From Haplodiscus bocki (lineage: Eukaryota): a stretch of 64,000 nt of DNA. A model generated the notes under the pieces. The model was not told where the DNA came from. It worked only from the letters and a program-made list of their open reading frames with translations, and made no database searches. The position numbers were made by a program, and so were the translations under genes. The stretch covers positions 74,648,001 to 74,712,000 of the forward strand of contig OZ296650.1 in assembly GCA_965655095.1 (NCBI GenBank), in the 5' to 3' direction. Below, one piece after another: positions 29,829 through 59,100 of the stretch. Each line of letters begins with the position of its first letter. Position 1 is the stretch's first letter.

Positions 29829-31923
29829 CCATAAAAATTCGGTTACGAAGACACGTCGCACATAATGTGAGTTCTTCCGTCAAAAAAACTAGGTTGAGTC
29901 ATGGTCGGTCGGGCGTGCCATTAAAACTAAAGCGCAGACTTAAAAAGTAAAGTTGAATTGTTCACTTCCGAAAACATTTCGAACTTATGTAAAACTAATT
30001 GATATGGGGTCCAGCTCTATTTGAATGACCGATGGAATTTAAAGTGCTTCCAGCATTTGAAAGCCAAGAAAAATAAATCAATGTCATTTCTTGTTCTAAC
30101 ATTTAATATTTACCATTTTTCTTCTGCAAATTCAAGAGTTTTTATTGCATTTGACAAATCGATCCAAAAGTTGCCAACTCATTTTGAGAAACAATTTCGT
30201 AAGAACGGAACTGATTTTTATCCATACCAGAAGACTCATCAGACCAAAAGTCGAAACAACGCCAACAACTATACGAAGGGGGCGAAATTTGAAAACACCA
30301 AAGGGTACTGCGGACTCACGATTTTTTTTATTACGAGGCTAAAGTTGGGACAATCTTTCTTGGAAGTACCTCAGATATTTGCAAACTATAAATTTACAAA
30401 AGACCAGAAGTCTCGTTACGAGTATTTCGATCCAATTTGTGCCGCAGTTGGGCTTATAATTTTCCAACTACTTTTTGAAGTAGGCGTGAAACGCTTTCTT
30501 AAAACCATAGCTGTCATCTTTGTTTAACCTCATCCTTGATTTTGAAATTAATGTCTTTAGTCGAATCCAGCAGAAAATTATTCCGCATAATTAACTGAAA
30601 ACTATTTGCCGATATGAAGAAGCTGTTCTCGTGCAATTTCGAAAATCAGTTGGTATTAAACTCAATTTTCCTAGCAACCTGAAAAGTGACAATTTTGTCA
30701 AATCAGAGTTGAAAAGCGATCACTAAGTGTCCCAGTGTATAGCCTTATTTTTTTCAACAATTTATAGACGTGGAGCAAAATCCTGGGAATCATTGAAAAA
30801 TAAGACTTAGCAAGAGGCTATATTGATTTTTTTGGACACAACCAATTAGCTTGAGATTAGTATGATGCCACCTTTTCTGTAATTTATATTTTCTGGGAGA
30901 CAATGGAGGCAACAATTGGTTACATTAGATCGTTTTGAATCAAAATTATTTTTTTCGAATGAGTGGTTATTGAGTAACACTGTTTTGAAAACCAAATAAC
31001 GTCTTTCAATATTGTACATTTCTGCACGCTCAGACTCTTTTTCTGAACATTAATGCGACACATTAAAAGCTGATTACAGTTTGCATCTTCTTGCATTTAA
31101 GACACTAAGAAATCCAGAACTGCTGCTTTAGATTGTGTGGAAAAGTAGCTGCTAAAAGTTGAAGCTTTATTTTTACTTATTGTTTTTCGTTATAGAAACT
31201 ATTGTATTGGTTACATGTCAAAATCTCCTAAGTCAAAATCTCCTATGCCAAAATCTCCTAAAATATTTTTATGCCAAGACGCATGAACCTAATTAAGTTA
31301 ATTAATAAACTAACCGAAACTAATTAAGAAAATGGTTTAGAGAGCTTTTCTATATTATTGCAAGTTGCATCTCTAAAATGTTCATCTTTGGAAGTCAAAA
31401 TCTAAAAAACCACAACTTTATCAAAAAATTTGAACAATCAAAAAGTTCTCAAGTTCTTTTTCCGGTAAAGAAAACTTTCCGATAAGTTTTACAAATTGCT
31501 TACGAATGAATAGTCCCATGAACAGCTGGCAAAAATTGTGGTTATCAAGTTTTCTTTTAAATTTCATGAATTTTATTTCGCGATTTGACTTCCAAAATGT
31601 TTATATGAAACCCAATTGGCCCAATTTTTCAAATTTTTGAACTCAAAAAAATGCAAATAATAAATATTTTCGCAAAAAATTTTGCATAAATAAAAAACGA
31701 ATACTATCGCAAAAACTTGTGCATATACAAAAAACAAATATGAAAACAAAAAATTTTGTGATACCCCTTTGCTTATTTATGGAACAAGATGTGGAAATTT
31801 TTTTCGTATTTCAATCATAATTTTTAGAAACGCCAACACAACCTATTTTAATGAGCATAAGTTAATTGTATTTGCGAGGGTATTCTGAAAGTTTTTTTTG
31901 CCCAAAATAACCAATGCCATAAT

Positions 31924-33106
31924 GGTGTCAGGTCAAAATCTCCTAAGTTAAAATCTCCTAAGTCATAATCTCTTATGCCAAAATCTCCTAAGTCAAAATC
32001 TCCTATGTCAAAATCTCCTAAATCAAACTCTCCTAAATTACTGAATGAAGTTATCGGCTTAAGAAATTAAATAATTGAGCTTAAAGCTGAAGTAATTTAG
32101 GTTAATTACTTCTAAATAATAAATTAGGACTACCATTATATGTCACATTGAATATTATGGCATTGGTTATTTTGGCATTGGGTATTTTGGCATTGGGTAT
32201 TTTGGCATTGGGTATTTTGGCATTGGGTATTTTGGCATTGGGTATTATGTCCTGACACCCATTTCTTGATATTTTTATCATTTCAAAAACACTTCTGTAC
32301 TCGGGCTGGGGTTTTTTCAGTACCAGGGATTCCGCAAAAATACTTTCAGAATACCCTCCAAAATACACTTACGTTATGTTCATTAGAGTAGGTTGCGTTT
32401 GCATTTCTGAAAATTATGGCTGAAATACGAAAAAAATTTCCACATCTTGTTCCATAAATAAGCAAAGGGGTATCACAAAATTTTTTGTTTTCATATTTGT
32501 TTTTTGTATATGCACAAGTTTTTGCGCTAGTATTCGTTTTTTATTTATGCAATTTTTTTTGCGAAAATATTTATTATTTGCATTTTTTTGAGTTCAAAAA
32601 TTTGAAAAATTGGGCCAATTGGGTTTCATATAAACATTTTGGAAGTCAAATCGCGAAATAAAATTCATGAAATTTAAAAGAAAACTTGATAACCACAATT
32701 TTTGCCAGCTGTTCATGGGACCATTCGTAAGCAATTTGTAAAACTTATCGGAAAGTTTTCTTTACCGGAAAAAGAATTTGAGAACTTTTCGATGGTTCAA
32801 TTTTTTTGAAAAAAATGTTTTTTTTTTCAGATTTTGACTTCCAAAGATGAACATTTTAGAGATGCAACCTGCAATAATATAGAAAAGCTCTGATGGCAAA
32901 TTATCGGTGTAATTTCTAAACCATTTTCTTAATTAGTTGCGATTAGCTTAATAATTAACTTAATTAGGTTCATACGTCTTGGCATAAAAATAATTTAGGA
33001 GATTTTGGCATAGGAGATTTTGGCATAGGAGATTTTGAGTTAGGAGATTTTGACCTAGGAGATTATGACTTAGAGATTTTGACTTAGGAGATTTTGAAAT
33101 GTAACC
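31924..33106. mobile_element. Second copy of the same element (E2, 1183 bp) inserted in inverted orientation into E1
   Basis: Ends GGTGTCAGGTCAAAATCTCC... and ...GAGATTTTGAAATGTAACC. 8-bp TSD GCCATAAT at 31916-31923 and 33107-33114. 32334-33106 is the reverse complement of 31209-31900, and 31924-32141 of 34391-34578. Confidence 0.85.
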
Positions 33107-33134
33107 GCCATAATACCCAATATGACATATAATG

Positions 33135-34389
33135 GGTGTCAGGACAATTCATCCTTCGCCATTTCAACCGCTGCAATTTCAACCGTTCACACATTCAACC
33201 GCGTGCCATTTGAACCGCGTGCAATTTCAACCGCGAGCCATTTCAACCGCGAGCCATTTCGACCGCCGCAACTTCAACCGCTTTCATTATCTAGTAATCA
33301 ATTAATTACAGTAACTAAGTGTAATAAAGATTAATCCTTTTTAAACGTAATAATTGAAATAAGGTTTGAATATAAAAGCGTCGGAGTTACCGGATTCAGC
33401 AATTAACGCACCAATAATAGGAAATTAACACAGTTTGCACCTAATCGTAATCGAAATTGTGTAAAAATGTTGAGCCTTTCAGTATTCCCGTAGCAGCACC
33501 TATCAGACGTTCCAAAATGCAAGTTCAAATTATAGAATCAAACCGAAGCGGAAAAATTGCACTTCATGACGGCCACTCATACAACCAGAAACAATCAACT
33601 ATTAACTGTATCCACTGGCGTTGCACAAAAAATTATAAGCTTAAATGTCCCGCAATCTTAAAAACTAAAAACGAAACTGTCACCGAAACAAAAGGTTTCC
33701 ATAATCACGAATGCGAACCCGGCGAATGTAAAGCCAAAGAAGTTGTGAACCAAATTAAAAGAATAGCCCGATATTCAACACCAACTGTGGCAATTGCCAA
33801 TGAAATGTACGAGGTTTCGGATGATTATGCAGTTCAGCTAGCAATGCCGAGAAAAGACAACCTGTTGCGAGCAGTCTCTCGAAAACGACAAAAAGCGATA
33901 TGTCTTCAAATACCTGCCCCAACTGATCGACATTTTGACGTCCCTAATGAGTTCGCTCCCTTCCTCCTACAAGGAATGATTGAATTGCTGAGTGAAAAAA
34001 CGAACCCAAACCCTGGCAAAATACTGGCAGACTTCGAAAATAAATCAAAGTCCCTTCAAGTTTGTTGTCCTAGTGAGATGCTAATTGCATCTGATTTCTT
34101 CCTAATGATGTTCAGAAACATCATTTTCAAGTTTGGTACATATGGTAGTTTGTCCAATATGACCTTTGGAAGTTACGTAACACTGTCTTATTGATGACGT
34201 TTAATTGATTCTATAATTACTTTACTTATTTTCGAACGTCTTGAAAAAATTGCATAATCTTGAATTTAATTAAATAGGTCGATTTTGTGGCGGTTGAATT
34301 TGCAAGTGGTCGAAAAGGCAAATGGTTGAAAGCGTGAACGGTTGAAATTGCAGCGGTTGAAATGGCGTAGGACGAAATGACATGTAGCC
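33135..34389 (+). mobile_element. Internally deleted Mutator/MULE element (D) with FLYWCH transposase fragment
   Basis: TIRs carry TTCAACCG(C) repeats. 9-bp TSD CATATAATG at 33126-33134 and 34390-34398. Confidence 0.9.
33517..34194 (+). pseudogene. FLYWCH zinc finger + truncated MULE transposase
   Basis: LHDGHSY...IHWRCTK..KLKCPAILKT.......GFHNH is a FLYWCH finger. PGKILADFE is the second MULE catalytic Asp motif. The first DGTF block and the C-terminus are deleted. Confidence 0.85.
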
Positions 34390-34849
34390 CATATAATGGT
34401 AGTCCTGATTTAATATTTAGAAGTAATTAACCTAAATTACTTCAGCTTTAAGCTCAATTATTTAATTTCTTAAGCCGATAACTTCATTCAGTATTTTAGG
34501 AGATTTTGACTCAGGAGATTCTGACATAGGAGATTTTGACTTGGGAGATTTTGGCAAAGGAGATTTTGACCTGACACCATTGTATTAACCTAACTATTGT
34601 AGCAAAATTTGCATTCAAAGAGCAGATGAAAGGAGCTGCAAAACTTCGAGCTCTAGTCCGTGAACAAATTGCCTTTAGCAACAGATTCAACTCAGTATAT
34701 AGGGTGGTTGTTAGGAATACAAAAAATTCATCATTATTAATGCAGAAAGAGCCTTAATAAGTTAATATTCCCGTAGAGAAGAAACATTAAGTTACCTTCA
34801 GGGACTCAGATATGTACAGAGAAGAATTTGTTATGATGTTGAACATGTC

Positions 34850-40329: not shown

Positions 40330-41330
40330 CCGTTTATTGTCGCTACAATCGTAACTTTCTTGCCAAAGACACTAAGCTCCACGTGGTCGAAAAACTTGGG
40401 AGCATAAACTTGGGAAACAGATTCTCAGATTTTACATTTAACGAAATCAGTTTCGGACGTTGAGTTGTCAGAACACACACGCAAAATTTGTTCTAAGTCA
40501 ATTTGTAGATCATGCGCTTGTGAGTGAAGTTCAATTAGGGGTCTTCCCGCAACTTTGTTTCAAATATTCCACAAAAGTCAACGAAGCCATTCTTCGGGCA
40601 CTTTTATAGAACTATCGATATCTCAATTAATATATGTTGAAATGTTTCTGTGACAAAGTTGAGTGGGGATATTTGGAGGCACTGAGTCGACATCTGAAGT
40701 TGGGTTTTTTCAGTGTCCTAAATATTTTGAACTAACCTAGTGTAACATTGTCAATTTTTTCTTTTTTTCACATTGTTCCAATTACTAAATGATAGTAATA
40801 CAGGGACTCGCACGGTTTTTGCGGGTCAGTGCCCAGATTATGTCAATCTTGTAGCGGTTTAATCTCTAATTTAAAACAGTTATTTCACAGGTGAACATTA
40901 GTTTGTAAGAACTTTGTCCAGACGTCTGATATTTCAAGAGTTGGCTGCAAGGCGGAGGTTACTGCAAGCGCAGCAATAAAGCCAAGCTAACAGTAGCCTC
41001 AGCAGTGCAATTACTTTGTTGACAGTAAATGTATTTAGATTTTCAAGGGCCGTTCCATCAAACCGCCTCAAAAATTTTCATGCTTGTTTTTTTCCCTTCT
41101 CTTCGTGAAAACGCTGAGGATTTAAATCAAATTCATCGGCTGAAAATCAAAACTTTCTACATCATATGAAATTAACCATATCGTTAACCAGTTTTATGGA
41201 CATCATTATCGGAGAATTTTATTCCAATGCACTACAAAAAAGTATGTGTTTTCTATGGATTTTTTGGTTGGAAAGTGAGCTACCGGTTTAATTACATTTC
41301 ACACTTCTTTCATTTTTCTTTAGTCTATTC
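40330..41330 (-). pseudogene. IS3EU-like DDE transposase relic (5' part duplicated at ~42414-42835)
   Basis: The - strand fragments are collinear with the family pattern: FSDNDVH (ISD.ELD), FLRRFDGTALEN (LRRVDP.G.E), DVWTKFL..NN (DG.SR.I..L...NN), QCL...F..E...I, FVEYL..SCGKTPN (F...WN.H....KTP.QL). Confidence 0.5.
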
Positions 41331-41485
41331 ACATCATTTTTTTGATAGACGTGAGTTCAAGATTCCGAAGGAATTGTTTCTTGCGTGAGGGGGGAAGATG
41401 GGATGTTACCGGGGTTTGTTCTAGGTTAGCTTTTCGGTTGAAGTGATATAAACCAAAATACCAATGTTCATGTTATCGCGGAGAA

Positions 41486-41970
41486 TTGATTTTGCTATCT
41501 CACCTGAGGGATACGCGTCGAGACGGGGCACTTAGAACTCACTATCAAGCCGTAGTTGCAGTGGTTGACACCGAAAGAAAGTTTGGCTTGGGCCAAAAAG
41601 CAAAGAAGTCAGAGGGGTCTGCTATCGGTGGACTAACAGTAAACGCGTTCACCAAGATGTTTATTTTATAGTAGCCCGAGGTTGCTATGCCTATGGACGT
41701 TTAGAGACTGTCCCATTTCGTGTGGATGCTGGATGGGGACACATGAGGGTATTCGAAGGCCCAGCTCCCGCTGGTGCAGGGATCGATGACCATTTCGTTG
41801 CGAGGAAAGTCCTGAGGCTTTCGGGCAATAAAGATGGCATGTTTATGATAAATGGCGACACCCGAGGCAACACGAGGTAGAATTTAAATGTTACCTGCCC
41901 CACAATCAAGTTCCGAAGCAAACTTGATGTGAAAGATTTTGACTAGACTTGGTTTGTTCGTTTGCTTAAC
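41486..41970 (+). pseudogene. RPS2: Highly diverged ribosomal protein uS5 (RPS2/S5 family)-like sequence, copy 1
   Basis: DGALRTHYQAVVAVVD....GLGQKAKK...SAIGG....A, then after one frameshift near 41665, IVARGC...G..ETVPFRV....G.MRV...PAPAGAGI....VARKVLRLSG..D......GDT. This is collinear with uS5 (GQRTRFKAFVAIGD..GHVGLGVK.SKEVATAIRGA...A....V.RG...HTVP.KV.G..GSV.VRLIPAPRGTGIV...VPKKLL..AG..D). Confidence 0.7.
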
Positions 41971-42990
41971 TCCTGCTGACTGGTTAACTTTCTGAAGTTG
42001 TTTCAACGATACTACCATACGAAAATTTTTTTGATGATTGGGTAAGATGAGAGGAAACTGAAAAATGGTTCGAGTTGTTTCTTTAATACATTTAGGACAA
42101 TCATGGTGTCAAAAAAAAGTGAGGATGGAGAATAAACTCAAGAGGAAATTGTCTGCTTTTATTGGGTTGGAAACCCTTACAAAAGGTTTCTCAATCTCAA
42201 GGTTAACTTTGATAAACGGATGCAGAAAATCAGAATCAATACAAAAAATTCGGTAATTTTTTAGGCCGCTGGAAAAAATTTCCTCAATTCCTTTGAAACT
42301 CATTCAAAACGAGTTTTTTTTGCAGAGTCTTTCAGCCCATTTTCAACGACAAAATAATTAGGCGTGAGATCAAGATTTATCTGATGTGCTTTTGAACTAA
42401 TTTTTTTCCTACTGAACTTTGTCCAGACGTCTGATATTTCAAGAGTTGGCTGCAAGGCGGAGGTTACTGCAAGCGCAGCAATAAAGCCAAGCTAACAGTA
42501 GCCTCAGCAGTGCAATTACTTTGTTGACAGTAAATGTATTTAGATTTTCAAGGGCCGTTCCATCAAACCGCCTCAAAAATTTTCATGCTTGTTTTTTTCC
42601 CTTCTCTTCGTGAAAACGCTGAGGATTTAAATCAAATTCATCGGCTGAAAATCAAAACTTTCTACATCATATGAAATTAACCATATCGTTAACCAGTTTT
42701 ATGGACATCATTATCGGAGAATTTTATTCCAATGCACTACAAAAAAGTATGTGTTTTCTATGGATTTTTTGGTTGGAAAGTGAGCTACCGGTTTAATTAC
42801 ATTTCACACTTCTTTCATTTTTCTTTAGTCTATTCACATCATTTTTTTGATAGACGTGAGTTCAAGATTCCGAAGGAATTGTTTCTTGCGTGAGGGGGGA
42901 AGATGGGATGTTACCGGGGTTTGTTCTAGGTTAGCTTTTCGGTTGAAGTGATATAAACCAAAATACCAATGTTCATGTTATCGCGGAGAA

Positions 42991-43475
42991 TTGATTTTGC
43001 TATCTCACCTGAGGGATACGCGTCGAGACGGGGCACTTAGAACTCACTATCAAGCCGTAGTTGCAGTGGTTGACACCGAAAGAAAGTTTGGCTTGGGCCA
43101 AAAAGCAAAGAAGTCAGAGGGGTCTGCTATCGGTGGACTAACAGTAAACGCGTTCACCAAGATGTTTATTTTATAGTAGCCCGAGGTTGCTATGCCTATG
43201 GACGTTTAGAGACTGTCCCATTTCGTGTGGATGCTGGATGGGGACACATGAGGCTATTCGAAGGCCCAGCTCCCGCTGGTGCAGGGATCGATGACCATTT
43301 CGTTGCGAGGAAAGTCCTGAGGCTTTCGGGCAATAAAGATGGCATGTTTATGATAAATGGCGACACCCGAGGCAACACGAGGTAGAATTTAAATGTTACC
43401 TGCCCCACAATCAAGTTCCGAAGCAAACTTGATGTGAAAGATTTTGACTAGACTTGGTTTGTTCGTTTGCTTAAC
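42991..43475 (+). pseudogene. RPS2: Highly diverged uS5/RPS2-like sequence, copy 2
   Basis: Duplicate of 41486-41970. Confidence 0.7.
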
Positions 43476-44089
43476 TCCTGCTGACTGGTTAACTTTCTGA
43501 AGTTGTTTCAACGATACTACCATACGAAAATTTTTTTGATGATTGGGTAAGATGAGAGGAAACTGAAAAATGGTTCGAGTTGTTTCTTTAATACATTTAG
43601 GACAATCATGGTGTCAAAAAAAAGTGAGGATGGAGAATAAACTCAAGAGGAAATTGTCTGCTTTTATTGGGTTGGAAACCCTTACAAAAGGTTTCTCAAT
43701 CTCAAGGTTAACTTTGATAAACGGATGCAGAAAATCAGAATCAATACAAAAAATTCGGTAATTTTTTAGGCCGCTGGAAAAAATTTCCTCAATTCCTTTG
43801 AAACTCATTCAAAACGAGTTTTTTTTTGCAGAGTCTTTCAGCCCATTTTCAACGACAAAATAATTAGGCGTGAGATCAAGATTTATCTGATGTGCTTTTG
43901 AACTAATTTTTTTCCTACTGAACTTTTTGCGATGCGTTTCTCTGAAAAAAAAGTTGACGGGTTTATCTCCCAGGTCAAGTTGATGGTGTTTCCGGAACCG
44001 CCCAGCGACTAATATTGTCATCTTCAGGGCTCCTATTTCGGCTCTGACTCGATTGGTGTTGTGTATTGCTGGAAGCGTTTTTGGAAATA

Positions 44090-44830
44090 CTTTCCACAAG
44101 CGTCCGCGAGAGGCTTTCTCTGGATGCCATTTCGCGAAGTCGCGAAGTCTTTTTCCGTGCGTTCTTTCGTTTCGCCGGGGCTTTTTCCGTGCGCTAGTCC
44201 GCAGCGACTTTAGCCGTGCGCTATCTCGCAATGTTTTTTCCCGTGAGCTCTTCTTCCGCGTTAGACTTTCCCGAGCGTCCTTTCGCGGTGCATTTTCCTT
44301 ACACTCTTTCGCCGACTCTTTCTGGTTGCGATGTTCCGCAGGGGCTTTTGCAGTGCGCAATTTCGCAATTGTTTTGTCCGTGCGCGTATTCGCAGGAGCT
44401 GTTTCTGTGCATTTTGTCGCTCGGATTTTTCCGTGTGCTCTTCCACAAGGAATTCTCCGTGCGCTCTTTAACTGGACTTTTTCCAAGCGAATTTTTGCAA
44501 GAACTTCTTGCGTGCATTCGTTTGCAGGGGTCTTTTCCTTGTGCTCTTCCGCAACAGATTTTCCCGTCCGCTGTTCGACAGGAGCTTTTTCGGTGCGCTC
44601 TTTCTAAAGGTTTTTTCACCTGCCTTTCTCACCGGAGTTGTCCCATGCACTCTTTTGCAGGGATTTCTTGCGCGCGCTCTTTGACAAGGGAATTTTGCAT
44701 GCGCTCCTCTGGAAGTGCTTTTTCCATGTGTTCTTTCTCAGGGTCTTTTCGCTGCGCTCTTTCGCAAAAGGTTTTTCTGTGCGCTCTTTCCCAGGCGTAT
44801 TTTCCGCGCGTAATTTTGCAGAGGCGTTTT
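44090..44830. repeat. Degenerate GC-richer minisatellite (~24-bp unit, GTGCGCTCTTTCGCAGGGGnTTTTCC-like)
   Basis: Recurrent GTGCGCTCT/TTCGCAGG/TTTTCC motifs explain the cluster of overlapping stop-poor ORFs. Confidence 0.75.
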
Positions 44831-45374
44831 TGTACCCACTTCTAGGGTGTGGGTGCTGTCTACGTGAAAGCAAACACCTCAAGACTTTTTTCACTGTTCT
44901 GGGCGAGTGTTTTCATACGATTAAAATCTTTCGGTATCACTTAAAAATATCACAACTCCTTTTCTCTTGGGCAAGTAAAGGTTGAAAATCGAAAACCATC
45001 TGGGCTCTGAAAACTCAACTTAGGAAGTGTAAATGATTTTCACATCTTCGCATGTCAAATCACAGCCTGGGAATTAATTTTCCACGACTTCGTCGTGAAT
45101 TGAAGGGTTTCTTTGTTTAGATCTTGAATATGATGTCGTGTTCTCATTGAAGTCAAAGACTTCCTCAAGTTCACATTCCGAGTAAACACGTTGATGCATG
45201 CGGGGTAAAAACCTCGTCCGAGACTTTCATCTCAACTCGATGGCCGCTTCATTCATGGTCAGCGTCATACTTGTAAATCGATGGAACATTGCCACCAGGT
45301 TAAACTGTGAAGTTTGCCATGAGAGGAGACCATGTTGGACTAGCTTCTACGGTCTCCTGTTGCTCTTCTTCTCC

Positions 45375-48280
45375 TCAGTTGTCGTCTACCGGTATCTCTC
45401 TATGCACATGCCAGTCTCTTGTTTCGTTGTGGCCGGAAGGAACACAATGTCCGCTATCATCGTTTTGTAAGAAACGCGTATCATCGAAAGCACTTGAAGA
45501 TATTTTGTTGTTTCGAATCGTTTGCAGGAAATTTTTTATGGAGCCAATTCTCATTCTGTTTGAAGTCATGTGATGACCACTTTGTAGAACACGTTTGTAG
45601 ACAACACACTTCAGTGAATTTTGAGCAATTCGAGGAACGCATTCTGCTGAAAACTTTTGTTCCTTCTCATAAACTTCCGATTACATCCCGGGTTTGAGAC
45701 CACTGAGTCCTCGGTTGATTTTCCTTGCCATCTCCTCATCGAATTTGAATGTGATTATCTTGTTCGCGTCACAATGAAACGGTTTGTTGCTCGGATAGTT
45801 TGAAAAGTCAAAATGGTTGCGTAGCATGGGATCGTTAGTTGTTTTGTCATAAAAGTCCTGTCCTCTGATCTCATGTAATAGCGTGTCAGTGATGGAATAC
45901 AACAGTAGGCAGTCGAAGGGTTTCTTCACAACTTGAGATCAAAAAAGTTTTCATTTTATGGAATGAGACAGTTTCGAAAAAACCCTACCGTCGTCTTCCG
46001 AACGTTTTATCGTTGACTCTAGAACACTTCGCTTGGACTTCCCATGATTTGTTGATCGAAACTATTTCGGAGGAAAATACGCCGGTTCCTTTGTTTTAGT
46101 TTTAGGGGTAAAGTTACAAGTTTTGACGCTTTATGCTTTCCTGGAAATGGAGTTCTTACAGATGGAGCTTGGCAAGATTTCTATGCAAGCGCGCATGAGA
46201 GTTGGCGTCTCCCAATACCTTCGTCGACTGCGACTCGTCTTTGCTACCAAATTTTTGTCGATGACGTTGATTGTTTTCAACAAACATCTGTCAGAGCTTT
46301 CAAGGATGGCTTTTGTTGTCTTAAGTAGTTTCACGTTGACCTTGTTGTGTTTGGATTCAGGAGTTTTGCCGTAACAAGGTTTGTTCAACATCTTATAAAA
46401 CGACTCTTCCAACATGGTCTCTGACTGTTTCCGCATTCTGGTGTTCAAGCTGAAGTAGGAGTCCAACAACTTTTCTTCAATGAACTGAAGGCATCGATGT
46501 ACATGTGTAACTTTGCGACCGCGATTCGATTAAAACTTTAGGGTAAAGTTAAGAACGGTGTAATTTTTCGTCGCCAATATCGGCTGTAGAAGCTTTGGCT
46601 TCTCAACACGTCTTCTGCTTGCTTGACCGGATAGACGCATCTGATACTCGAACAACATGTTGCGAGGAAATTTTTCCCTTGTTGGAGCCACTGAAAGTCT
46701 CTCTGCATATTGTCGAGGGCATCACATTGAATTTTTATACGAAACCAATGTCCGAGTTGTTTGCAGTTTCAAGAATGGAGCTAAGTTCAAAATCCGCAAT
46801 CTAAAAATAGCTCAAATGAAAACGATCTGAACTAAAATTTTGAAGTCAAGTTCCGGAAGATTGTGCTCGATAACAACCAAGCATAATCCACAAGTTTCAT
46901 GTATTTTTATAATCTGGACTGAGTTTCTATCAGAAGTGTCAGATCATGTCGTTAACGGTGTGATGAGTGACTGAATATCGAATTGCAAAACATAAGTTGC
47001 GAACCATCTCGACTGGTACTTTTGGAACTCGAACTTTTTTTTCGTCTCGTAATTTTTTGGTAGCCTACTTCGTTTTGCATGCAAGTCTCAAGATGTCTTT
47101 CGTAACTTTGAGCTATGTTGCAAAAATGAAAAGAGTAACGACAATTTTTGATAAAGGATCGTGGAACCTGTTGTTTCAAATTACCGACTGAATTTTTCAG
47201 TTCTTCAATCAAAACAACGGTGAGCTTGGCCATCGCTAGGAAGAAAAAGAAGTTCTGAAATGGAAACAAGAAAATCTTCGCTTTTGTATTCACTATGCAT
47301 TGAGATCTTTTTTTTTGGTAACGGATGCATTGACTTCAACTTTTTCAGGTTTTCAAACCTTGGAATTTGGTTGAAAGCCATCGGCATTTTGACACTGGTT
47401 GATTTGTCAATGGATAAAAGGGATTAAATGTTTTTGCGTTTGTTCTTTTTCGGCAACCGATATCTTTATACAGATTCTGAGCATAAGCCAAATGCCACAA
47501 TACCACGTAACAAAAGAAGGAGCAAATGTTATCATCCAAGTTCCTTACGTTCAACAGGCAATTCATATTTTGAAGGTCACTTGGCAACGCAAGGTAGGAT
47601 GAACTTCGACTAAGGATGTAGAAAACTAGTTGGGATGTAGGAAGTAGAGACCATTTTTCTCTTTGAGCATCCACACACTTCCGCGGAAAGTGAAACTGAA
47701 CACACGCGATAACATTTGATCCAATACAGTGAAAAAACTTCCTCTGTGAGTCTCACATCCAGGTAGACTAATTTCATTTTGGGATTAACGTGAATTGTGA
47801 GATCAGTTGAGTCCTGATTTTCTAAGGTTGGCTTTTCCGAAATAATTTTTGCTGATACCTGCACTTATTTCAATTTCACTTGAACAACTTCCTCTTTAGA
47901 TCACCGTTTGCTTGTAAGAGCTCCGTCAGCACCACCAAAAGCAGATGCTCAAGGTAGTTTGCGTTCCGAGTTTTGAGTTTTTCCAAATGGTAGCCACGAA
48001 TGAACTTCTTGTATGTGCTATTTGAAAATCTTTGTATCAGAGAAGAGACTTTTGCAATAAATGCACAGCTTCTCTTTCCCTTTACTTTGTTTTTCCTCAA
48101 CAAGTTTTTTGCATTACTGCCAGAAAGTAGTTTTTGAAATCACATTCCAGACAATTTTTATGCTCCGGCGTCGACGTTTCAGTGTTTTGAATATTGCTGA
48201 GATGCCGATATAATTTCTGCTTGTTAGCAAATGTTTTGCTGCAAAAATCACAGTTTTTTTCCGCTGCTGAGCCACTTAAC
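45375..48280 (-). pseudogene. polB: Protein-primed DNA polymerase B with N-terminal C2H2 zinc fingers, degenerate
   Basis: CDFCSKTFANKQKLYRHL (C2H2, ~48250), SSSYLALPSDL..NCLLNVRN.DD (47345-47674), FYKMLNKPCYGKT (KL..NS.YGK), LLYSITDTL (Y.DTDS), FDFSNYP, NKISSSAFDDTR....GH (C-terminus). Confidence 0.9.
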
Positions 48281-49619
48281 TGAATTTGAAAACTTGAGAA
48301 AGAATTACTTTTTCCTTTTCTATTTATGGTCGTCTGTTTTGTTGACTAACGCTGCAGGCTGAAAAAAGGTCATCTTATCATATGCGTTACCATTGACAAA
48401 ATTCTGAGTGTTTATGATAGTGTCTTTAGTTTTTACTAAGAAACAAACAGCTCTCGTTCTTTCGTCTGTTTAAAAAAGAAATTTTGCTGCTGGCTTTTGT
48501 TCTCTGATCACCATTTTTACAACTCTTGAAATGAACTATGACTAGCTTCATAGGCCCGATTTCTTTGATGTTTGTTCATTCTGATTTTACTGCTACCCGC
48601 TGAGGGTAAGTTTTTCCATGGTGCTGGAATTTTTTTGTCTTAGGGGGAAACCTACAATAATTGTTTTCATAGTAAAATTCCTCATTTTGGATTTTTTATA
48701 CGCTGAGGTTTTCATGAAGATATAGACAAATTTTCACTGAATGTCGGAAATTGTAGAAAACAATCTTGAATGTGGTTATCAAAAAAATACAATTTATAGA
48801 TCGGAAAAATCTAGTGTTTTCACTTCTCGTGAAAAGGTTGGACGGTTTTCCGATTCCTTCTTTTCCTGGCGGCTGAAGACATCCAGGAGAGTAGCAAGGC
48901 GTTGACTTCACAAGCAGAAAAAAATTGTTACCGTCCTCATTACTATCTTGATCGAACGGCGTGTTGAAAATGGAGATGGCGTTTTTACTTCCTTCAGTTG
49001 TGGAGACTGAGGGTCGCTAACTGTCTCCGAACACCACTCTAACGTTTCTAGGTTGGACAAATAACCAGACTGGTTCTCGCATAGGGTTATGTCTTCACAA
49101 ACAAAACGGAAAGTTAGAGGTTTTTACGTCGAGCATTTCATGTCTGGTTTTGTTTCATCAGATTGTTTCATTGAACGTCTTACGTTTCCTAGAGAACAAT
49201 ATCATTCTCGCATTGGCCTAACTGCTCAGAAAATAAAAAATGAATCCACCATTCTATTCCTTTTCTGGAAAAGTTTTCAGAGATAGCTACATCGACACTT
49301 CTAGAAATTCACGGCTCCTAATTTGAATTACAGCTAAATTTTTTCTTAAAACTGGACTTTTTGTTCCCAGAACATTCCAAAAAAGGAAATGATGTTGTGT
49401 CTCATATGGAGCAACGACTTAAACTCGCTGCTTCCGAATTTGATCAGCTGGTTAAAACTAAAGGTATTTTTGGACTGCAACCAACGCCTGAAGCAGAGGA
49501 TGTAATGACAACTTTCAATCGAAAGAAGCCATGTAACAAACATTTTTCTGAAATCTGCAGATTGTGTGTTTGTGACAGTAACTCTATACATTTTTTATTG
49601 TTGCCTTTACTTGCTTTCG

Positions 49620-50230
49620 AACAAGAATATCATTTCATCAATTCATGTTTTCATGCCAAGAACACTCTCTCTTCGAATATGTAAGTTCGTTTTGTGAAAT
49701 TTACCAATTGTGACCTAAATTTTTCAGTATCCAAAAGTGGTTGAGGCTATATACGAACAAGCGCATATTTGTTTCACGATTTTTCGGAAAAACTTCCTGC
49801 AACATCTTTGTTTCGAACAATCACGTGTGGGGCAAGATTTTGAAAACATCATATGTTATAACTTTCTGAAGGAATCAAATACGGTGACATTGAGCAAAAG
49901 TATTGTCATCTTCTCTTGGAATCAAGCTTCAAAATTCAAGAACGAGGAAATGGGTACGCTGTGCAAGTGTTTTTTTTCAATTTTTTCGTCTATGATACAC
50001 AGTACGTGGTATTTAGAGTTGAACTGTGAAACGTTTGAAAAACCTACCGGAGAATTGACATAAAAATTGAATCTCGGCAACAGGAATCCGTTTTGCAAAA
50101 GCACGAAACGAAAATGCAAATGAGTCCAAGTAGTGAGAAACAAAAATGAAAGATCAGCGCAAACCAGCGCCTTTCCTCCAGTTTCTCTCAGTAGACTGCA
50201 CTGATACTTGTCGGTCAATATGCAGCTTTT
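49620..50230 (-). pseudogene. Polinton packaging ATPase relic
   Basis: LLQNGFLLPRF...IEKKHLHSV and downstream LLL..VFDS (LLIFDDS, Walker B-like). Located next to the protease. Confidence 0.5.
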
Positions 50231-50377
50231 CTTAGACTTTAGTTGATGTTTTTATCTCTAGCTTTGGTAATAAAAACATTTCATTTCTAGCTTTTTATTT
50301 TGATTCATCGTCTTTTGAAGAAAGCAAGGTTTTGAAGTTCTGTATATTTCAACGTACGCGAAGATAAGTATAAAGCT

Positions 50378-50811
50378 TCAACAATTTTTACAAAACTGTT
50401 TTACAATTTCGAATAAGCGTTCATCATGCTTTAGCGGTAATACAGTGTGGTAACTACTGAAATTATAATAAGCAATGTTTAAACAATAAAGTCCATTCTG
50501 TTTCGATATAGGCTGTTGACAAGGTTTTCGAGTTAGTTCTTCACAACAGAAATCAGCATAGATTGGGCGGTTATTAACTGTTCTGTAAGCATCCACACTG
50601 AAACCTATTGGGTCACCAAAAAGATACACTCTGTCTTTGTTACAGAGTATGAGCCAAGGTTTCTGTTCTTCATCAGATTTCCGGAGTTCACAAAAACGAA
50701 AGTGTTTTCGTTGAAAAATAAAGGAAATTTATCTGCAGTGAAGACCCTTACGAATCTATGTCTCAGGTCCTCACACTTCGTAAGCTATAATAAAAATTCA
50801 GTATTGTCCAT
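50378..50811 (-). pseudogene. Polinton adenain-like cysteine protease relic
   Basis: MDNTEFL..LTKC.DLRHRF.RVFTADKFP, (H>P)WLILCNKDRVYLFGDP.G, Q..S..NGLYCLNIA. Confidence 0.8.
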
Positions 50812-50829
50812 CAACGATTGGTTTCCAGC

Positions 50830-52130
50830 TTTGTGTTTTGGAAGATTTTCTTGGAAACATTCCGAGAAGAATCAATGTAAATAGTAGATTGTTCACATAA
50901 TAAAAACACTTCCTAACTGTTTGTTAGTTGTGCTGAAAATCTTGAACCAATGGAAATGGATCCCTTTGACAGTTTTTTGTGAAAACATTGAGGGGATGCT
51001 TGTTTTTTTCTGGTTACGTTGAACACTAAAATATAGTGATTAGGAAAGTCGTTATAAGAGACTCCATGACCATTTTGTTCGAAAGCTAGAGCTTCCAGCG
51101 AAAGTAGATTTTCTTATCATTCTCCGTTGGAAGTGGAGTTCCGGCAACAGGATAACGAATATGATAAATTGTAATGCTGTTCAGACGGACTTTCTGGAAC
51201 TACAAATGATATGCGCTCTCGGTTCCGAGAAAGGCCTCGTTTGTTGTCATAGCTATTGGAGAACTAGCAACGGCCTCCCTGAAGAATGCATCCGTGTGAC
51301 TCCAACTCTGCCCCTCTGGCTGAATGAGTATTATTTTTGGCATGATCTCAGTATAACGGTAAAGAGCAGAGGTTTAGGTTGTTGAGGTTTCAAAAGCTCA
51401 GTAAACGTTTTCACTTACTGTCATTTTTCCAACGTAAAAAGCGGCTTGCAAAATTTTGATTTTATAGTTTTTTGTTTCATCATCGTGAACCAATGCGTTT
51501 TTAGTTGGGGTTCAAAGAAACCAAACACTCCGTGTAACTCCAATTATGAGGTGTTTATCACGAAGAAAAGCCCATGCAACATTTTCAATGAAAGAGATTT
51601 CTCCGACCTGCTGTGTTTCAGCTGTCGTTGCAGTGAAAACTGTTTTTAGTAAAACCATCAGTTTGCTCTTCATTAGATTATCCCTGACATTTCAACCAAG
51701 TTTCTCTTGCCTTCATGTTGTATCAAAATTCTGTTTCAATGGAAGCTTTTTGAGCGTAATTGCCACTAGCAGAAAAAATTTTGATGCCCTCTGCAGTAAT
51801 ATTACACTTAGAGAAAACAAAATGTTGGGTGTTATTGGGAAAGAATGGTGAATCAGCTGCCGCAGCATCAGCTGCGTCGTATTCCACTTTGTCACCATTA
51901 GGTCTGGGAATCCTACATTCCACCTCGAGATAGTTGTTTTTGCGAAAATTATCATTGGTTTGATCTAGAACTACTTCAAACTCCAGTGTGGGGCCATTTG
52001 GAGCAAACACTGCACCAATTTTCTGCTCGAATGATGTATTGAAGGTAATCAGAAGAGGCAGACGCTCCAAAATATCCAATGATTTGTGTGATGCTTCAAC
52101 ATAGAAATGTAAGGTAACAGTTTTCAGTCG
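50830..52130 (-). pseudogene. Polinton major capsid protein relic
   Basis: SLDILERLPLLITFNTSFEQKIGAVFAPNGPTLEFEVV...YLEVECRI....GD...PFFPNN..H..FS is the typical Polinton MCP N-terminus. Confidence 0.85.
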
Positions 52131-52159
52131 CGAAAAAAAATTGACCGACTACTCCGGAG

Positions 52160-52450
52160 CTATTTTCGACGACTGTTTCTTTTCACAGGTTTACTCGTTG
52201 TGCCTGATGCACTTCCTCCAATTTGATTCTTCGTTGTTTTTTTTGTCAGAACTGATTTCACTGTTGGTTTGAGAGATTTTCTTTTTATGGCAACATCCAT
52301 CATTTCTGGTAAACTTTGAACAAACAATTCCGTCCCACTGATTTGACAGCTGGTAGTACTTTTTGCGGAAGATAACGCGACTCGTCCAACATTAGCGGCT
52401 AAAGACCTAAAACGCTTTCTCGTGGTTTTGTGTGTCAAGTGAGACATGAC
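52160..52450 (-). pseudogene. Small basic Polinton core/PZ-like ORF relic
   Basis: RFRSLAANVGRVAL..AK....G.ELFVQSLPE...V...RKSLK...K...K.Q.GG lies immediately upstream of the MCP. Confidence 0.55.
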
Positions 52451-52459
52451 AGCTTGCCG

Positions 52460-53330: not shown

Positions 53331-53339
53331 AGCTACCGA

Positions 53340-54230
53340 GCTGTTGTCAACTCTAGCTCGTTAAAGTTCCCCTCAATGTCTTCTTTCAGAGTCAACCAGC
53401 AAATAAGAGGGTGGGTTGGATGTTTCATTTTTGGTTTTCTGGAACACTTTGTCACTAAAGGCATGTTTGTACCCTTTTTTAATCAGTATACGTTCTTTTG
53501 CTAATCGAGCTTTGTCTCCAGGTTTCAATTTGGGTTTTTTCACCAGTTCACCAGTTTACCCGATTGTTCTGCTATGTCTGAAACCAAATTTGTTACATGC
53601 TTCGCCGAGAGCTTGTGGGGTGCCAATTGTGTTGCGCGGTTGGTTTGAGAATTGATCGTGTTAACGAAAGGCTCACTGTTTTTGTAGCGAATGAGAGCAT
53701 TTGTTCTCCAATGTTACTGTTTTTCAGAGATGGAATAGTGGTCTATATAGAAGCCGATTTTGCTTCCACGTTTGTGCTGTGAGTTTCAGTGGCTTTGCTT
53801 CCCCTTTCAAATTCTCTTTTGGACTTTTTCAAAGCTCTTTTGAACTCGGTTCTTTTATCACGCCACGCTTTCAAAGGTTCAGTTTTGGTGATCATGCGAC
53901 CAAGAGTTTTAGCAGTTCCCTCTGCACCATTAGACGACTTCTGAGTTTTCCTGACAGACTATCAGCAGCGACAAAAAGGTATTTAACCCCCTCGTTGTGT
54001 CTAGCTAGTTTGTCCACATAGGCTAAATCAGTAGACCAGATCTCGTTGATATCGCAGGCCATGACTTCCAATTGGCGAAAATGTCTTCTGTGTTGTCTGT
54101 ATTTCCTATGTGAATTTTTACTGTGTAGGAAGGTTTCAATTTTCACCCGAAAAAGAAAACTGTGTATTTGGAGATTTCAAACTATTCCATTCGCTGCCGA
54201 TTCTGTCATATATAACTTCTCGAGTTTCAT
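53340..54230 (-). pseudogene. Polinton retroviral-like integrase relic
   Basis: MKLEKLY...FLHSKNSH.KYR..RRHF.QLEV...DINEIWSTDLAYVDKLARHNEGVKYLFVAADSLS. Confidence 0.9.
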
Positions 54231-56199
54231 TTTGTCAGAATGAGAACTTCCGTCGCTGGCGTTGAGATCTCTTCCGCTAGAGACTCTTTTGCAACCTGCT
54301 TGTCATCCAGTCGTTGTTTCTCAGATGCTTTGTTGGTTGTTTTTGTTATAGGACATTGTTTTGCTTCGAGTAGGTTGGGGTAGTTTCTTTGCGTCGGAGT
54401 TAAGGACCAAGGTCGAAAAAAAATTGATCTTGTCTAAAGTTTGTTTTGTAGCCAGGGTCATGTAGTCCGTTCTTTGTTGACAGTAAGTTGTAAAGGAATT
54501 TGGTTACCTCAATCGTGGTTACGCGATCATCTGCTGTGAGAAATCCGTCTTCGTTAACTACATCTGAAGCTTCGTAGTTTTTCAAAATTATTTTTTTTGA
54601 GCTGTCCGAGCTTCAACATTGATAATGGTTTTAAACCTTTTTCTCCACAAAATCCGGCTGATTCTCTCAAATTTTGGATACAGTTGAACATTTATCTTTT
54701 CCTACTGTAGGTTTTCGTCTCTAGCAACGTCATTGTTTGGCTTTCTAAGTGATTGTTGGATCGACCAAAACATCCCATGATTTAAATTGCTCTTCCAATA
54801 AAGTTTTTTTTTCGGATTTGGAGTAAAGTTTTTTGAGATGATTGTATTAGGTATGATTAGGCTGGACAACTGATCTCCATCAATTTGATTCCTTTGCTGG
54901 AGGTAAGAATGTGTTACGTTTTCATGTCTAATGTCTTAGGATTGCATAATGTTTCAGCTTTTTTCACAGGTGAGTAGGCGGTATTTTTCACATTGAATGA
55001 AACATTTCCTTTAAATATATAAAAGTCGCATTTACGGAGAAATTTCAATTCATCTGCGCCAAAATTGCATACAATTCCGTCGAAAACTTTCCTCTTCTTT
55101 GTTTTGGCAATAGTTCAGTAAATGCGCTTTTTCTTCTTTCATTCGTCAAAGCGGTCGCTTTCACAGGAAAAAGTAGCGCCTGGTCCAGTGATATTGGAAC
55201 AAAGCGGCAACGATTTACTTTTGAATGACCATGCGGAGACGAAATAGGTTTTTGATAACAATCTTGAACGAACTCCTATTTGTTTAATTGTCTACCAAAA
55301 CGATCTATTTGCTAAACGCCACACGGAGACTTGAATATAACAACGAGTATTGTTTTGAAAACAATTGTGCAAAACCACTTCCTGTGAGGAAACGAAGTTT
55401 TGTTGACAAAAATGCTGTATCATTTTGTCTTCCAGCAACGGCCATCTCAAAAAATACTCATTCCTGGTACATTTCTTCGCAAGAATCATCAAAAAAAGAG
55501 AAATTTCCAAGCCTCTCAATCATTTCTCAATGTTCACTTTTTTAAACAGTTTCTTTGAATAATGGCTAATAATCCATGTAAAAGTAAGTTTTTTGAAACT
55601 TGGGGTTAAAAGTTTTAGCTGATTCTAACCTTGTAAAGGAGGGTTTTGTCTTAACTCAGCGTCCAAGTGCCAGAAAACACATGAATATTCCATCGTTAGT
55701 GAGAATAATTTTGTTCATAGCTGTGGCTTGAGAAAAATGAAACCAAACGCAGCTTATTAGAGACTCATACTGCCGTTTTTTCGCAAGATATTTTGTGAAA
55801 AGCATTTTTCCTAGATTGCTAAATATGAGTATCAAAGAAATACAGCTTGGAGAAAAAGACAGCTTCCGATCTTGGTAACGTTGATTTAAAATACTTCCCT
55901 GACGAGCAATCGGTATTTTTTGCTTCGTAGACGAATTTTTCAACTCAGGTATTGTCAGGACAATCAACTGCTTGTTCTTTCATCTCTATGTAAAAAAAGT
56001 TCCGGGTTGGAAAAAAATACTTCTAGCCTGGTTAAATAAAGTTGTCTTTTCTTTTCAGCTCGTTCAAGATTTCTTCGGGCAACTGGGATCCTCTTTACCA
56101 GATAGAAATGTCGGTTTAAGAAGCGGCGAAAGTCTCAGAGGCTTGATAATGTTGTCTTGCATCAACTGCTTCAATCGGGTACTTAATATGATTACGTAT

Positions 56200-59100
56200 G
56201 AAGTTCAGAAAAGGGCGAGGAGAATCGAATAGACACAAGGATACGGAATTCAGTATGAGATAAAAGCATGACTACCTTTCGCAAAACTTTATGTAATCCA
56301 ACTGGTCGGTATTCTTCTTATCACCAGTTCAGTTGTTTTGTTTATAGAGATTTTCATGAATTTGACCTGGTTGGCTGCTGAGGCTGAGGAGGTTAAACTG
56401 GGGGACAGGGTGAGAAATAAATTACCTTCGTTTTTCTGTGTTGGGGAAGCTGTAGACATAAGCGTTCAGCTGACACTGACTTTGCGAGAGTTGAAACAAG
56501 TTTGATTTTGCCCGTGAGCAATGATCTCATGAGAAAATTGCTGAGTATTTGAAACAACTGGAACTGCAGTTCTGCTGGAATTCGGAAGCTGTGGGACAGA
56601 TAAGTTGATCCAAATGAATGACTTGGCAGTGAAAAATCCGGGGAATCAAACACTTTTCGTTACTTTTGGGGTAAACGATGATGTTTATGAAACGCATTTT
56701 TTCAGCTTAGATTGAAACAGTAGACAAAAGAAAAATCGGAAAATCCAGAGTCCCAGTTCAAACCGTGTTTGTTTTTCGTGCGCCAAGTAAAACTTTTTGT
56801 GCCATGACAGAGACTTGGTCACTCAGATAAGGTGGCTGCAGAAAAAATATCCTGTTCGATTCAAAACGCCGAACAGATAACTCTTCCATAGTGAGGTTGA
56901 TTCAAAAAACGAAAGCCTTCGAAATCAATCGCAACTGTTTGAGCTGTCAGCATGAAAGAAGTGCAGAGTTTTATCCGGAGGACTTCACTGTAATTGACTA
57001 CCGACTTTTCACGGTTTGCAAAACAGAATTGTCAATAGGTGTTAGAACCTTCGATCAACCTATCAGACTTCAGTGATTTAACTTTTGGACATGCCTCCTT
57101 TAATATAGCAATATCGAGCAATGGATGAATTGGCGTGCATAATCCAATAAGAAATATTCTTCCATGTTCCGAAGCGAATTCTGCTTTCCTACTTTCTGTT
57201 TGCAAGTCTCTGCGATCCCACGAAATCATCTCGGAACGTGACATCTCTGCCTTCCTAAGCTGTTTTTTTAGAGCGAACTAACGAAGAAATACGAAACCGG
57301 TTTATCAGGCACAAAATAACGAGTGTTCTGCGACAGTTCAGGCATATTTTACTTAATGAAAACATGGTTCTGAAATGGGTCTTCAGTGCTGCTCACCACA
57401 TTTACTTCTCAAACTTTCGACCTTCATGAGCATGGGCAATTGAAAGCAACCCCGTTTGTGTCTGCAGGGAAAAAACAAACACCGTCGTTCAGACAGAAAC
57501 CGTCACATTTGGGCGAACAGTTGCTATTACATAGTCGTGTTGGTCGTAATAAAACCAAAATTGTTAGAAGAGCGAGACTTATTGTCCTTATCTTGAAAAG
57601 CAGCTGTTTCCAATCCATTGACGAATTATTTTTCAAATACTTGCAACTTTACTGTACTAAGAAACTGAATTTAGTTTCTTCTGACGTTCCCTATTGCAAG
57701 TCCATATTGGAAAACAAACTATTTTCGGCTTTCGGATTCGAACCCTCAGCCTTCAGAAAGAGCAACTGTCTGTACCATCTGAGCTATTTGTTCATTATTG
57801 TGAACGTAGTCAAGTGATTTATATTCAAAAGATAAACTATGGAGCACTGAAAGGTATCAACCATCTTCTTAGATTTCACCGCGATTATTTTCACAGCCCT
57901 CATCTTTTCTTTTTACCAATGATCATTCACATTTTTTTCGCAGGTCAATCCCAAGATTGTCTCAATCTTTTCGCAGGTGAATCTTGTACAGATTCAACTG
58001 CCAAAAGATTGACACAATCTTGGTATTGACCCACGAAAAACTATGTGAATCCTTTTACTACTGACAATTCTACATGGATAACGCTTTCATCTTCACGAAT
58101 TTTACTCTGCACCTCGAAAATTCTAGCTACAGCGAGAATAAATGACAGAAAATTGAAGTTCCGCGCAAATTAACAGAAATGCGACGACTTGGTTAGATGT
58201 AACCAACAGTGCGTCTGTGGCGAGATGGGACAAGGACACAATCCATTTGTGAACATATTGCCGTTTGAAACGAATTTTTCTTCCAAAATTTGTTGAAATC
58301 TTCCTTGCAGGTTTTGCAGATATTTGAGTATGGCAAACTCATTGCACTGTTTCGGTTATTTAACACCCTAAACGCATCTTGAACATCAATACCCCAATTC
58401 CGCAGCAATTTGATTGTCGAAGACATTAAAGATGCCAGGCATTAAGCGCTACCTAAGTGAAAAACTGCATTGAGCGAATTCAGCTGAAAATCCAATCACG
58501 TCGAAAACTGGACACTATTCGAACAGTCGACAATTTCGTTTTCGATGGTCTACTGGTAAAATTTTTAACGCTTTAAATGGTTCGCAATTTCTCGACGCTT
58601 TGTGATTTGAAAGTGTTTTGACGCCATGAGTAGTCACCATTTTGAAAAAGCGCGAAATAAGATTCGAAATTGACAAAATTTGAATTAGGCACTTGGTATC
58701 GAAGAGCAATCAGTAGCTTTCACTCTCATTTGGGGACACGGAGGAGAGTAATTATGAACAAAGAAAGTAAAAGAACAATAAGTTGTAGAAATTATACGGT
58801 TCACTTTAGCGGCCTCAACCTCGCTTAATCGGTCAATTATGCTATCGTTTGCGAAAAACGTAGAACCTACAGGCATTAAGACAAGCTTAATGCCCAAAAT
58901 ACTTCTCAACAACCCAAATTATGATCTTTTCATTTTAGTGGCCTTAAAGGCCTCGCAGCTCCTTTAAATCTGCCGCCAAAATAAAATGATGAATTTGTTT
59001 TCATCCAATTGGCAATTTTTATTCGACAAAGTTCATTATCACGTAGTTATCCATCTTAAAAAATTACTGATCCAACATAACTCATGTTTGTTTGTCTTTT

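Follow-up and report, generated by a model that had tools for sequence, protein, structure and literature searches.

Vertebrate Mavericks are described as elements of the 15-20 kb class with AGTAGT...ACTACT ends, terminal inverted repeats (TIRs) and 6-bp target duplications, and they encode a protein-primed DNA polymerase B (polB), an integrase, an ATPase, a capsid protein and an accessory gene near the end (PMC8097293). Their accessory regions are described without ribosomal proteins, the string "ribosom" being absent from the main text of that description, and the elements are reported to be intronless (PMC8097293). Ribosomal protein genes have been called a rarity in eukaryotic viruses. Described examples are eL40, which assembles late, in the giant virus FloV-SA2 (PMC11499249), eL40 and S27a in ChrysoHV (PMC13595923), and an antisense fau/S30 in FBR murine sarcoma virus (PMC13598248), and substitution into the host ribosome has been hypothesised for phage bS21 (PMC11499249).

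The Polintons of Haplodiscus bocki presented here resemble vertebrate Mavericks in size class, ends and gene content, with a probable capsid protein, but their accessory gene encodes a ribosomal protein, uS5, its slot holds many exchangeable versions of this one gene, and polB carries a short intron-like interruption. As in FloV-SA2 and ChrysoHV, for which tuning of host translation has been proposed, a eukaryote-type ribosomal protein gene is found in a viral genome. Whereas those are small eukaryote-type proteins in giant viruses of protists, uS5 belongs to the universal core proteins and lies at the mRNA entry channel, and it is here carried by an integrating animal element of ~18 kb, and the Polinton protein is trimmed, hypervariable and 31-42% identical to the host protein. 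Phage bS21 shares the idea of substitution into the host ribosome, but is a late-assembling, different protein from another domain of life. The open papers searched contained no Polinton ribosomal protein, and a 2025 giant-virus preprint and Mizuno 2019 might include uS5.

The window, that is the whole stretch of 64,000 nucleotides that was analysed, had been described in a sequence-only reading as holding a strongly diverged uS5-like gene, about a third identical to animal RPS2 and with a single frameshift and late stops in a largely preserved frame, adjoining a Polinton. The gene (copy 1, 41456..41943, + strand) is broken, with no in-frame ATG, a frameshift and a stop. In the six-frame translation of the + strand the frame of the N-half is open at 41447-41668 and that of the C-half at 41569-41877, the only frameshift lies near 41662-41668, and a TAG follows at 41878-41880. 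The overlapping frames (41456-41877, +) match PF00333 (E 0.029) and PF03719 (E 0.0067) in the correct order, each below the Pfam cut-off, and chain to an open Polinton copy in tblastn (E 4e-26) with 46% and 41% identity, compared with 31% and 33% to host RPS2. The description of the gene was thus borne out and its placement was not, since the gene lies inside the Polinton, whose TIRs begin at 40794 and end at 58062. An ATG is absent at the usual place in the window type and also in type c, and an upstream exon may be needed in these two types.

The gene is present twice, in a head-to-tail repeat in which 40909-42420 recurs at 42414-43926 with 99.87% identity (self-BLAST). The two units of 1505 bp (40909..42413 and 42414..43918) each contain the uS5 cassette, and copy 2 (42961..43448, +) has breaks identical to those of copy 1. 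Among four sequencing runs of one study, the 1505-bp unit formed a contig of its own in runs X1 and X2, which also gave a 53-nt junction contig below the bridging length of the tool, and a contig of X3 skips one unit. These contigs make an assembly artefact unlikely, and they suggest that the gene was already dead when it was duplicated, recently and with the duplication probably still polymorphic.

The Polinton of the window is a decayed element of 17.3 kb (40794-58062) that aligns lengthwise to a young full-length element at about 70-80%, with uS5 ~670 bp from the left terminal repeat. The left TIR (40794..40865, +) begins AGTAAT and is 75% identical to the 72-bp TIR of the intact element, and the right TIR (57991..58062, -) ends ACTACT. 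Between them are the remnants of the 27-bp-repeat region (43984..44845, -, the strand being taken from intact copies), the protein-primed polB (45098..48371, -, convergent with uS5, found by tblastn to the intact element), a 168-aa frame without a Pfam match (50393..50886, -), which is probably a maturation protease, the probable major capsid protein (50814..52100, -, 67% to the intact frame), the retroviral-type integrase (53336..54212, -) and the packaging ATPase (55093..55727, -). No recognisable 6-bp target duplication was seen around 40794-58062 in this copy. An additional inverted TIR copy lies just inside the right end (57925-58062). Elsewhere in the window, a 277-bp tandem array of at least 15.3 copies with 98% matches occupies 59750-64000, and nested inverted repeats with 15-bp minisatellites (31205-34572), probably a Mutator-like element, surround a FLYWCH zinc-finger frame (33451-34194, PF04500 E 3e-9).

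By following uS5 copies with long open frames, eight elements were reached that could be examined end to end, namely seven full-length elements of 18.1-20.8 kb with an open uS5 copy and one derivative of 2.4 kb. All eight have 72-bp TIRs starting AGTAGT and matching 6-bp target duplications. The layout of the element is TIR, an inward-pointing uS5, the basic frame of 27-bp repeats and then the convergent polB. In the intact element polB matches PF03175 (E 3e-15), the integrase matches PF00665 (rve, E 3e-9), and the A32-like ATPase reaches PF04665 just below the cut-off (E 2.6e-4, 21.0 bits against 22.8) with a visible Walker A motif. The element thus has the marks of a Polinton, namely TIRs with AGT-AGT ends and a 6-bp target duplication, a protein-primed polB, an rve integrase and an A32-like ATPase. 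The capsid frame has no Pfam match and its single-sequence fold prediction gave a pLDDT of 32, while its ESM scores were 0.98 to clusters in which 30% of members carry PF21738 (DJR-like; recognition 2236 against a guide value of 2300) and 0.96 to a PF16903 cluster, so that the frame probably encodes a double jelly-roll major capsid protein. The frames put forward as candidates for the maturation protease and the minor capsid protein had no Pfam match. Close to its right end the young element has a 102-aa frame (L078:2822-3127, +) whose product, with a hydrophobic segment and a match below the cut-off to an EGF-like domain (PF07974 E 0.004), is a possible growth-factor mimic.

The 27-bp-repeat region forms a long basic-repeat open frame in young elements, and its end is the right edge of the swappable cassette. 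Its length is very variable and it is open in several frames (window 43984-44845; L058:7900-9190). The region could encode a Lys/Arg-rich repeat protein, which may be a DNA-condensing core protein. The polB frame is interrupted at a conserved place in the window (~45950-45990) and in all young elements. The interruption varies in length from copy to copy and ends in a polypyrimidine tract and AG, as a short intron likely would. An in-frame polB stop that would need readthrough by an error-prone uS5 was considered and rejected, because the interruption is intron-like.

A large number of uS5 matches was obtained from the host genome of 1.5 Gb. There were at least 93 matches with the PF03719 profile (150 of 164 candidates scored), 60 with PF00333 and at least 144 with one relative as query (150 of 235 candidates scored), and the window gene as a DNA query gave 36 matches, of which 33 were in one tandem array. 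These lists include the single canonical RPS2 of the host (L013/L235), L014, by eye probably the mitochondrial uS5, and the intron-bearing paralogue L234. The last (L234:6018-7450, C2:105.18 Mb) is a host paralogue that has diverged from RPS2 and has an insertion behind the conserved Trp. P0247 is its counterpart at 70% identity, and the 10 kb fetched around L234 contain neither a Polinton gene nor a TIR.

The left end of the element was also searched for with uS5 DNA excluded (40 of 445 candidates scored, loci returned for 30), and 28 of these 30 left ends have a uS5 gene in the same orientation no more than 1.8 kb away, one of the remaining two being broken off at the gene start and the other meeting an assembly gap. 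This count refers to the left-end DNA of this element, and an unrelated Polinton family beside one copy lies outside it. From the match lists, 73 uS5 loci were picked by hand with at least 9 kb of context each (arrays under-sampled; host RPS2, the paralogue L234 and the two left ends lacking uS5 excluded), of which 67 are accompanied by a Polinton gene or TIR, 57 by a convergent polB and 6 by neither. Families in which polB or the capsid shares only about 30-50% identity with the young element are arranged in this way too. The uS5 gene is a fixed, standing gene of these full-length Polintons, in line with the earlier proposal that it is cargo of a mobile, virus-like element: the search for intact copies and their flanks led to open copies inside full-length, TIR-bounded Polintons.

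Tandem arrays of the uS5-bearing left end have also arisen on at least five independent occasions (C6:2.236-2.315 Mb, C1:78.23-78.30 Mb, C7:38.83-38.90 Mb, C2:36.55-36.58 Mb, and window 40909-43918), with genes that are mostly broken. The C6 array has about 33 units of 2.45 kb and the other arrays have periods of about 1.7 and 2.5-3.2 kb; such arrays might give rise to satellites or to small RNAs.

To describe selection on uS5, changes were compared within and between types. Within three young pairs, 14 changes are synonymous and 11 are non-synonymous, where neutrality predicts a synonymous share of 0.237 (P 5e-4, w 0.24). Among 13 type representatives, codon position 2 is kept more than 15 points better than position 3 in all 78 between-type pairs, the mean identity by codon position is 54/59/30%, and the mean amino acid identity is 36% (range 19-55), with third codon positions saturated between the uS5 versions. 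Compared with type c, the window halves give 62/66/31 and 64/70/25. These comparisons indicate that Polinton uS5 has been under purifying selection, and they agree with the earlier suggestion that the gene evolved under selection as a separate lineage before inactivation, given the w of 0.24 in young copies and the separate clade described below. Old copies within one type have w values mostly of 0.5-1.7, as expected if copies decay neutrally once inserted.

The window copy taken by itself could pass for an ordinary processed pseudogene of host RPS2 that has grown old, or for DNA that hitch-hikes neutrally in the element: it is dead and shows neutral decay against its nearest relative L085 (w 0.48 and 1.66 for the two halves). 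A plain retrocopy had already been doubted in the sequence-only reading, and the family as a whole, with its many loci, fixed position in the element, open young copies and purifying selection within and between types, leaves this explanation a negligible probability.

Comparison of elements carrying different types places the diversity of uS5 in a discrete segment. The backbones of types a and b are 96-98% identical, with pS 0.06-0.07 in polB, capsid and ATPase, but their cassettes (nt about 280-1490, comprising uS5 and both non-coding flanks) give no blastn match to each other and their uS5 proteins are 42% identical with pS 0.79. Type c repeats the pattern seen between a and b, again with an unalignable cassette. 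Near-identical backbones with unalignable cassettes indicate that whole uS5 cassettes have been exchanged. Accelerated protein evolution was rejected as the cause of the cassette divergence, because synonymous sites and non-coding flanks are saturated too. The exchanged cassette is bounded on both sides by conserved arms, and the exchange would have proceeded by homologous recombination. An extra segment of ~950 bp with no clear open frame is common to L203, L208 and L211 (type a) at element position ~304.

On a polB tree built from a 2-kb segment (31 of 38 loci with matches, the remainder being too short or untyped), the 11 uS5 types need 17 changes where the minimum is 10, and well-supported branches force at least three changes each for types a, b and e and two for type c. 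The type labels are nevertheless more clustered than shuffled labels (a value as low in 1 of 200 shuffles). The repeated changes of type on this tree imply that old versions coexisted and moved repeatedly between backbones. Overall, uS5 is almost certainly a selected Polinton gene in an exchangeable cassette, which is common to the three functional readings considered here.

In one of these readings, the uS5 versions are incompatibility or exclusion alleles that act between elements or host genotypes in a toxin-like, dominant-negative manner and aid spread or persistence. Nematode Mavericks with cargo genes reportedly cause incompatibilities, many old versions coexist through time on one backbone lineage, and a non-autonomous derivative of 2405 bp (L190, C6:88.60 Mb), with TIRs, a target duplication and an open uS5 identical to that of full-length type a, retains the gene. 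This reading is rather improbable, however, as the cassettes of types a, b, c and of the window type showed no second conserved open frame that might serve as an antidote, and the tandem-amplified copies are mostly broken.

The origin of the gene was examined by phylogeny. The Polinton versions form one clade with an SH-aLRT support of 98 in a tree of 112 rows, 96/92 in a tree of 61 rows under a mixture model and 100/96 in another tree, and the clade is never nested in archaea in any tree (all trees omit near-duplicates and segments of fewer than 95 profile positions, and the 96/92 and 100/96 trees also omit long-branch or redundant outgroups). A single Polinton uS5 lineage that is not nested in archaea is thus indicated, and the sequence-only reading, which had proposed a phylogeny and named grouping with host RPS2 at a single locus with dN/dS near 1 as the contrary outcome, is answered by a separate clade. 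By maximum likelihood the clade lies beside the sampled eukaryotes, with a support of 99 in the 112-row tree and only 82/66 in the 61-row tree, and the monophyly of eukaryotes without the Polinton clade falls to 63/41 in the 100/96 tree. AU tests, with groups chosen in the light of the first tree, did not reject the nesting of the Polinton clade with the host clade (p 0.068) or its nesting with animals (p 0.135).

A resemblance to archaeal-type uS5 had been suggested from several motifs, and horizontal acquisition had been named as possible. The resemblance is present in part, as the window C-half alone has an archaeal uS5 as its best PDB match (E 3e-5), four family columns match the commonest archaeal letter in 43-62%, and the support of 82/66 for Polinton uS5 with eukaryotes was obtained with one bacterial outgroup. 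The family profile and the diagnostic columns, on the other hand, point towards eukaryotes. All of the top 60 PDB matches of the family profile are eukaryotic cytosolic uS5, fold matches are likewise eukaryotic first, and at 11 columns that separate eukaryotes from archaea 57 of the 217 Polinton cells agree with eukaryotes and 23 with archaea, the window copy being eukaryote-like at 5 and archaea-like at 0. Of the two archaeal cysteine columns, in the loop that follows the conserved Trp, the first is deleted in 21 of 21 types and the second is never cysteine. Sisterhood with one archaeal row, a crenarchaeal row bearing the motif noted earlier, was rejected in a sample that did not knowingly include Asgard archaea (p-AU 0.036). 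An archaeal origin was not supported, and horizontal capture of an archaeal uS5 is considered very improbable. Instead, we infer that Polinton uS5 was captured once, long ago, from a eukaryotic RPS2, possibly that of the host lineage.

Relatives of Polinton uS5 beyond the host genome were present as ENA proteins among the sequence-search matches. The best identity in whole-genome searches of the host was 39-53% for P0005 (which passes the PF03719 cut-off only), P0146 and P0154, and 25-47% for a long type with an N-terminal extension of 35-45 residues (P0246, P0165, P0303-P0311; whole genome for P0246 and fetched loci for the others). Given these low identities, the ENA proteins likely come from other genomes. 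Host-genome members of the long type sit in Polinton remnants. Searches of viral, phage and metagenome collections with single-protein queries, pattern searches that reach close relatives only, returned no match.

Both S5 profiles match, in order, in the three open types of the host genome, all of which pass the PF00333 and PF03719 cut-offs; the HMMER check proposed in the sequence-only reading thus found both domains, in the window as well, where they fall under the cut-off. For an open type a copy, AF2 gave a pLDDT of 88 and a pTM of 0.80, and the best Foldseek matches of this model are eukaryotic uS5 (TM 0.82, rmsd 1.5-1.7 A), so the protein is predicted to fold as the uS5 core, a dsRBD-like domain followed by the S5 C-terminal fold. 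It shares with eukaryotic cytosolic uS5/RPS2 both Pfam domains, the predicted fold, the basic charge (pI 9.0-10.7 across types) and the internal import arginines. Unlike RPS2, the open frames start at human residue ~102 and end near 250, and they have neither the N-terminal ~100 residues, with the first helices and the RG-rich extension that bears the chaperone site, nor the C-terminal tail; in addition, the loop after the conserved Trp is two residues shorter. PDCD2/Tsr4 binding and PRMT3 methylation map to the RG-rich N-terminus (PMC10216425).

A mammalian-like row served to number 32 columns conserved in both eukaryotes and archaea. At least 70% of the 21 Polinton types keep 17 of these columns, mostly Gly, Pro, Ala and core residues, and 15 are not kept, with V112, Q113, T116, H178, S190, T230 and T232 among the lost positions. 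Several type representatives are decayed copies, which lowers the apparent conservation. R121 is kept in 65% and R123 in 94% of types; with an offset of 26 these residues would correspond to R95 and R97 of yeast, which are part of the internal Pse1 import signal of uS5 (PMC10377357). In the uS5 that lines the mRNA entry site (PMC6298780), R152 contacts mRNA position +10 (PMC13517186), and Y143C of yeast, equivalent to Y169, is a reduced-accuracy allele (PMC5303280). R152 is kept in 2 and Y169 in 1 of the 21 types.

These features are open to a reading in which the same cassette encodes a protein that works off the ribosome, as a free RNA binder or as a decoy that draws off some host factor able to recognise the uS5 core, be it a chaperone, an import receptor or a factor of surveillance or silencing, with versions diversifying to escape. 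Loss of 15 of the 32 universal columns with the Gly/Pro fold core retained, absence of the chaperone-binding N-terminus, and an extreme diversity of versions with cassette exchange, as in an arms-race module, would fit it, and PDCD2/Zfrp8 is said to be linked to RpS2 and to the control of transposon RNA. On the other side, the best-described non-ribosomal sites, those of PDCD2/Tsr4 and PRMT3, sit in the missing N-terminus (PMC10216425), and the protein retains its two domains, the distance between them and its basic charge, all of which a role in the ribosome would require. An off-ribosome protein is therefore a real possibility that we rate below even.

The best explanation, to which we give about an even chance, is that a putative chaperone-independent, surface-variable uS5 would bind to the uS5 site of the host 40S or pre-40S subunit. 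The captured RPS2 would have been trimmed of its N- and C-terminal extensions, and the internal import motif that it retains would take it into the nucleus with no help from the PDCD2/Tsr4 chaperone. At the uS5 site it would expose a variable surface to the mRNA entry channel and bias translation in favour of the element. Frequency-dependent selection, by host recognition or by competition between elements, would keep many versions in coexistence. Against a fit to the ribosome, a mean identity of 36% is very low for a protein that has to fit a conserved rRNA pocket. The full form of this explanation, which seems to us unlikely as it stands, is that an integrating animal virus encodes a trimmed uS5 that takes the place of host uS5 in the 40S subunit or blocks it, and that rebuilds the entry channel and the accuracy of decoding. 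The virus would exchange a dozen or more ancient versions of the gene, as alleles of a specificity module, in an arms race fought over the host ribosome.

In genome annotation, pipelines would wrongly label Polinton uS5 copies as pseudogenes or paralogues of RPS2. On a near-constant backbone the exchangeable cassette offers uS5 variants with a mean identity of 36%, in effect a natural allelic series, and single-gene assays could address whether viral ribosomal proteins build specialised ribosomes and what role the accessory genes of Polintons play. If the explanation is true, a selected, universal and fidelity-setting core protein carried by a small integrating animal virus would be both a new place and a new protein for the viral control of translation.
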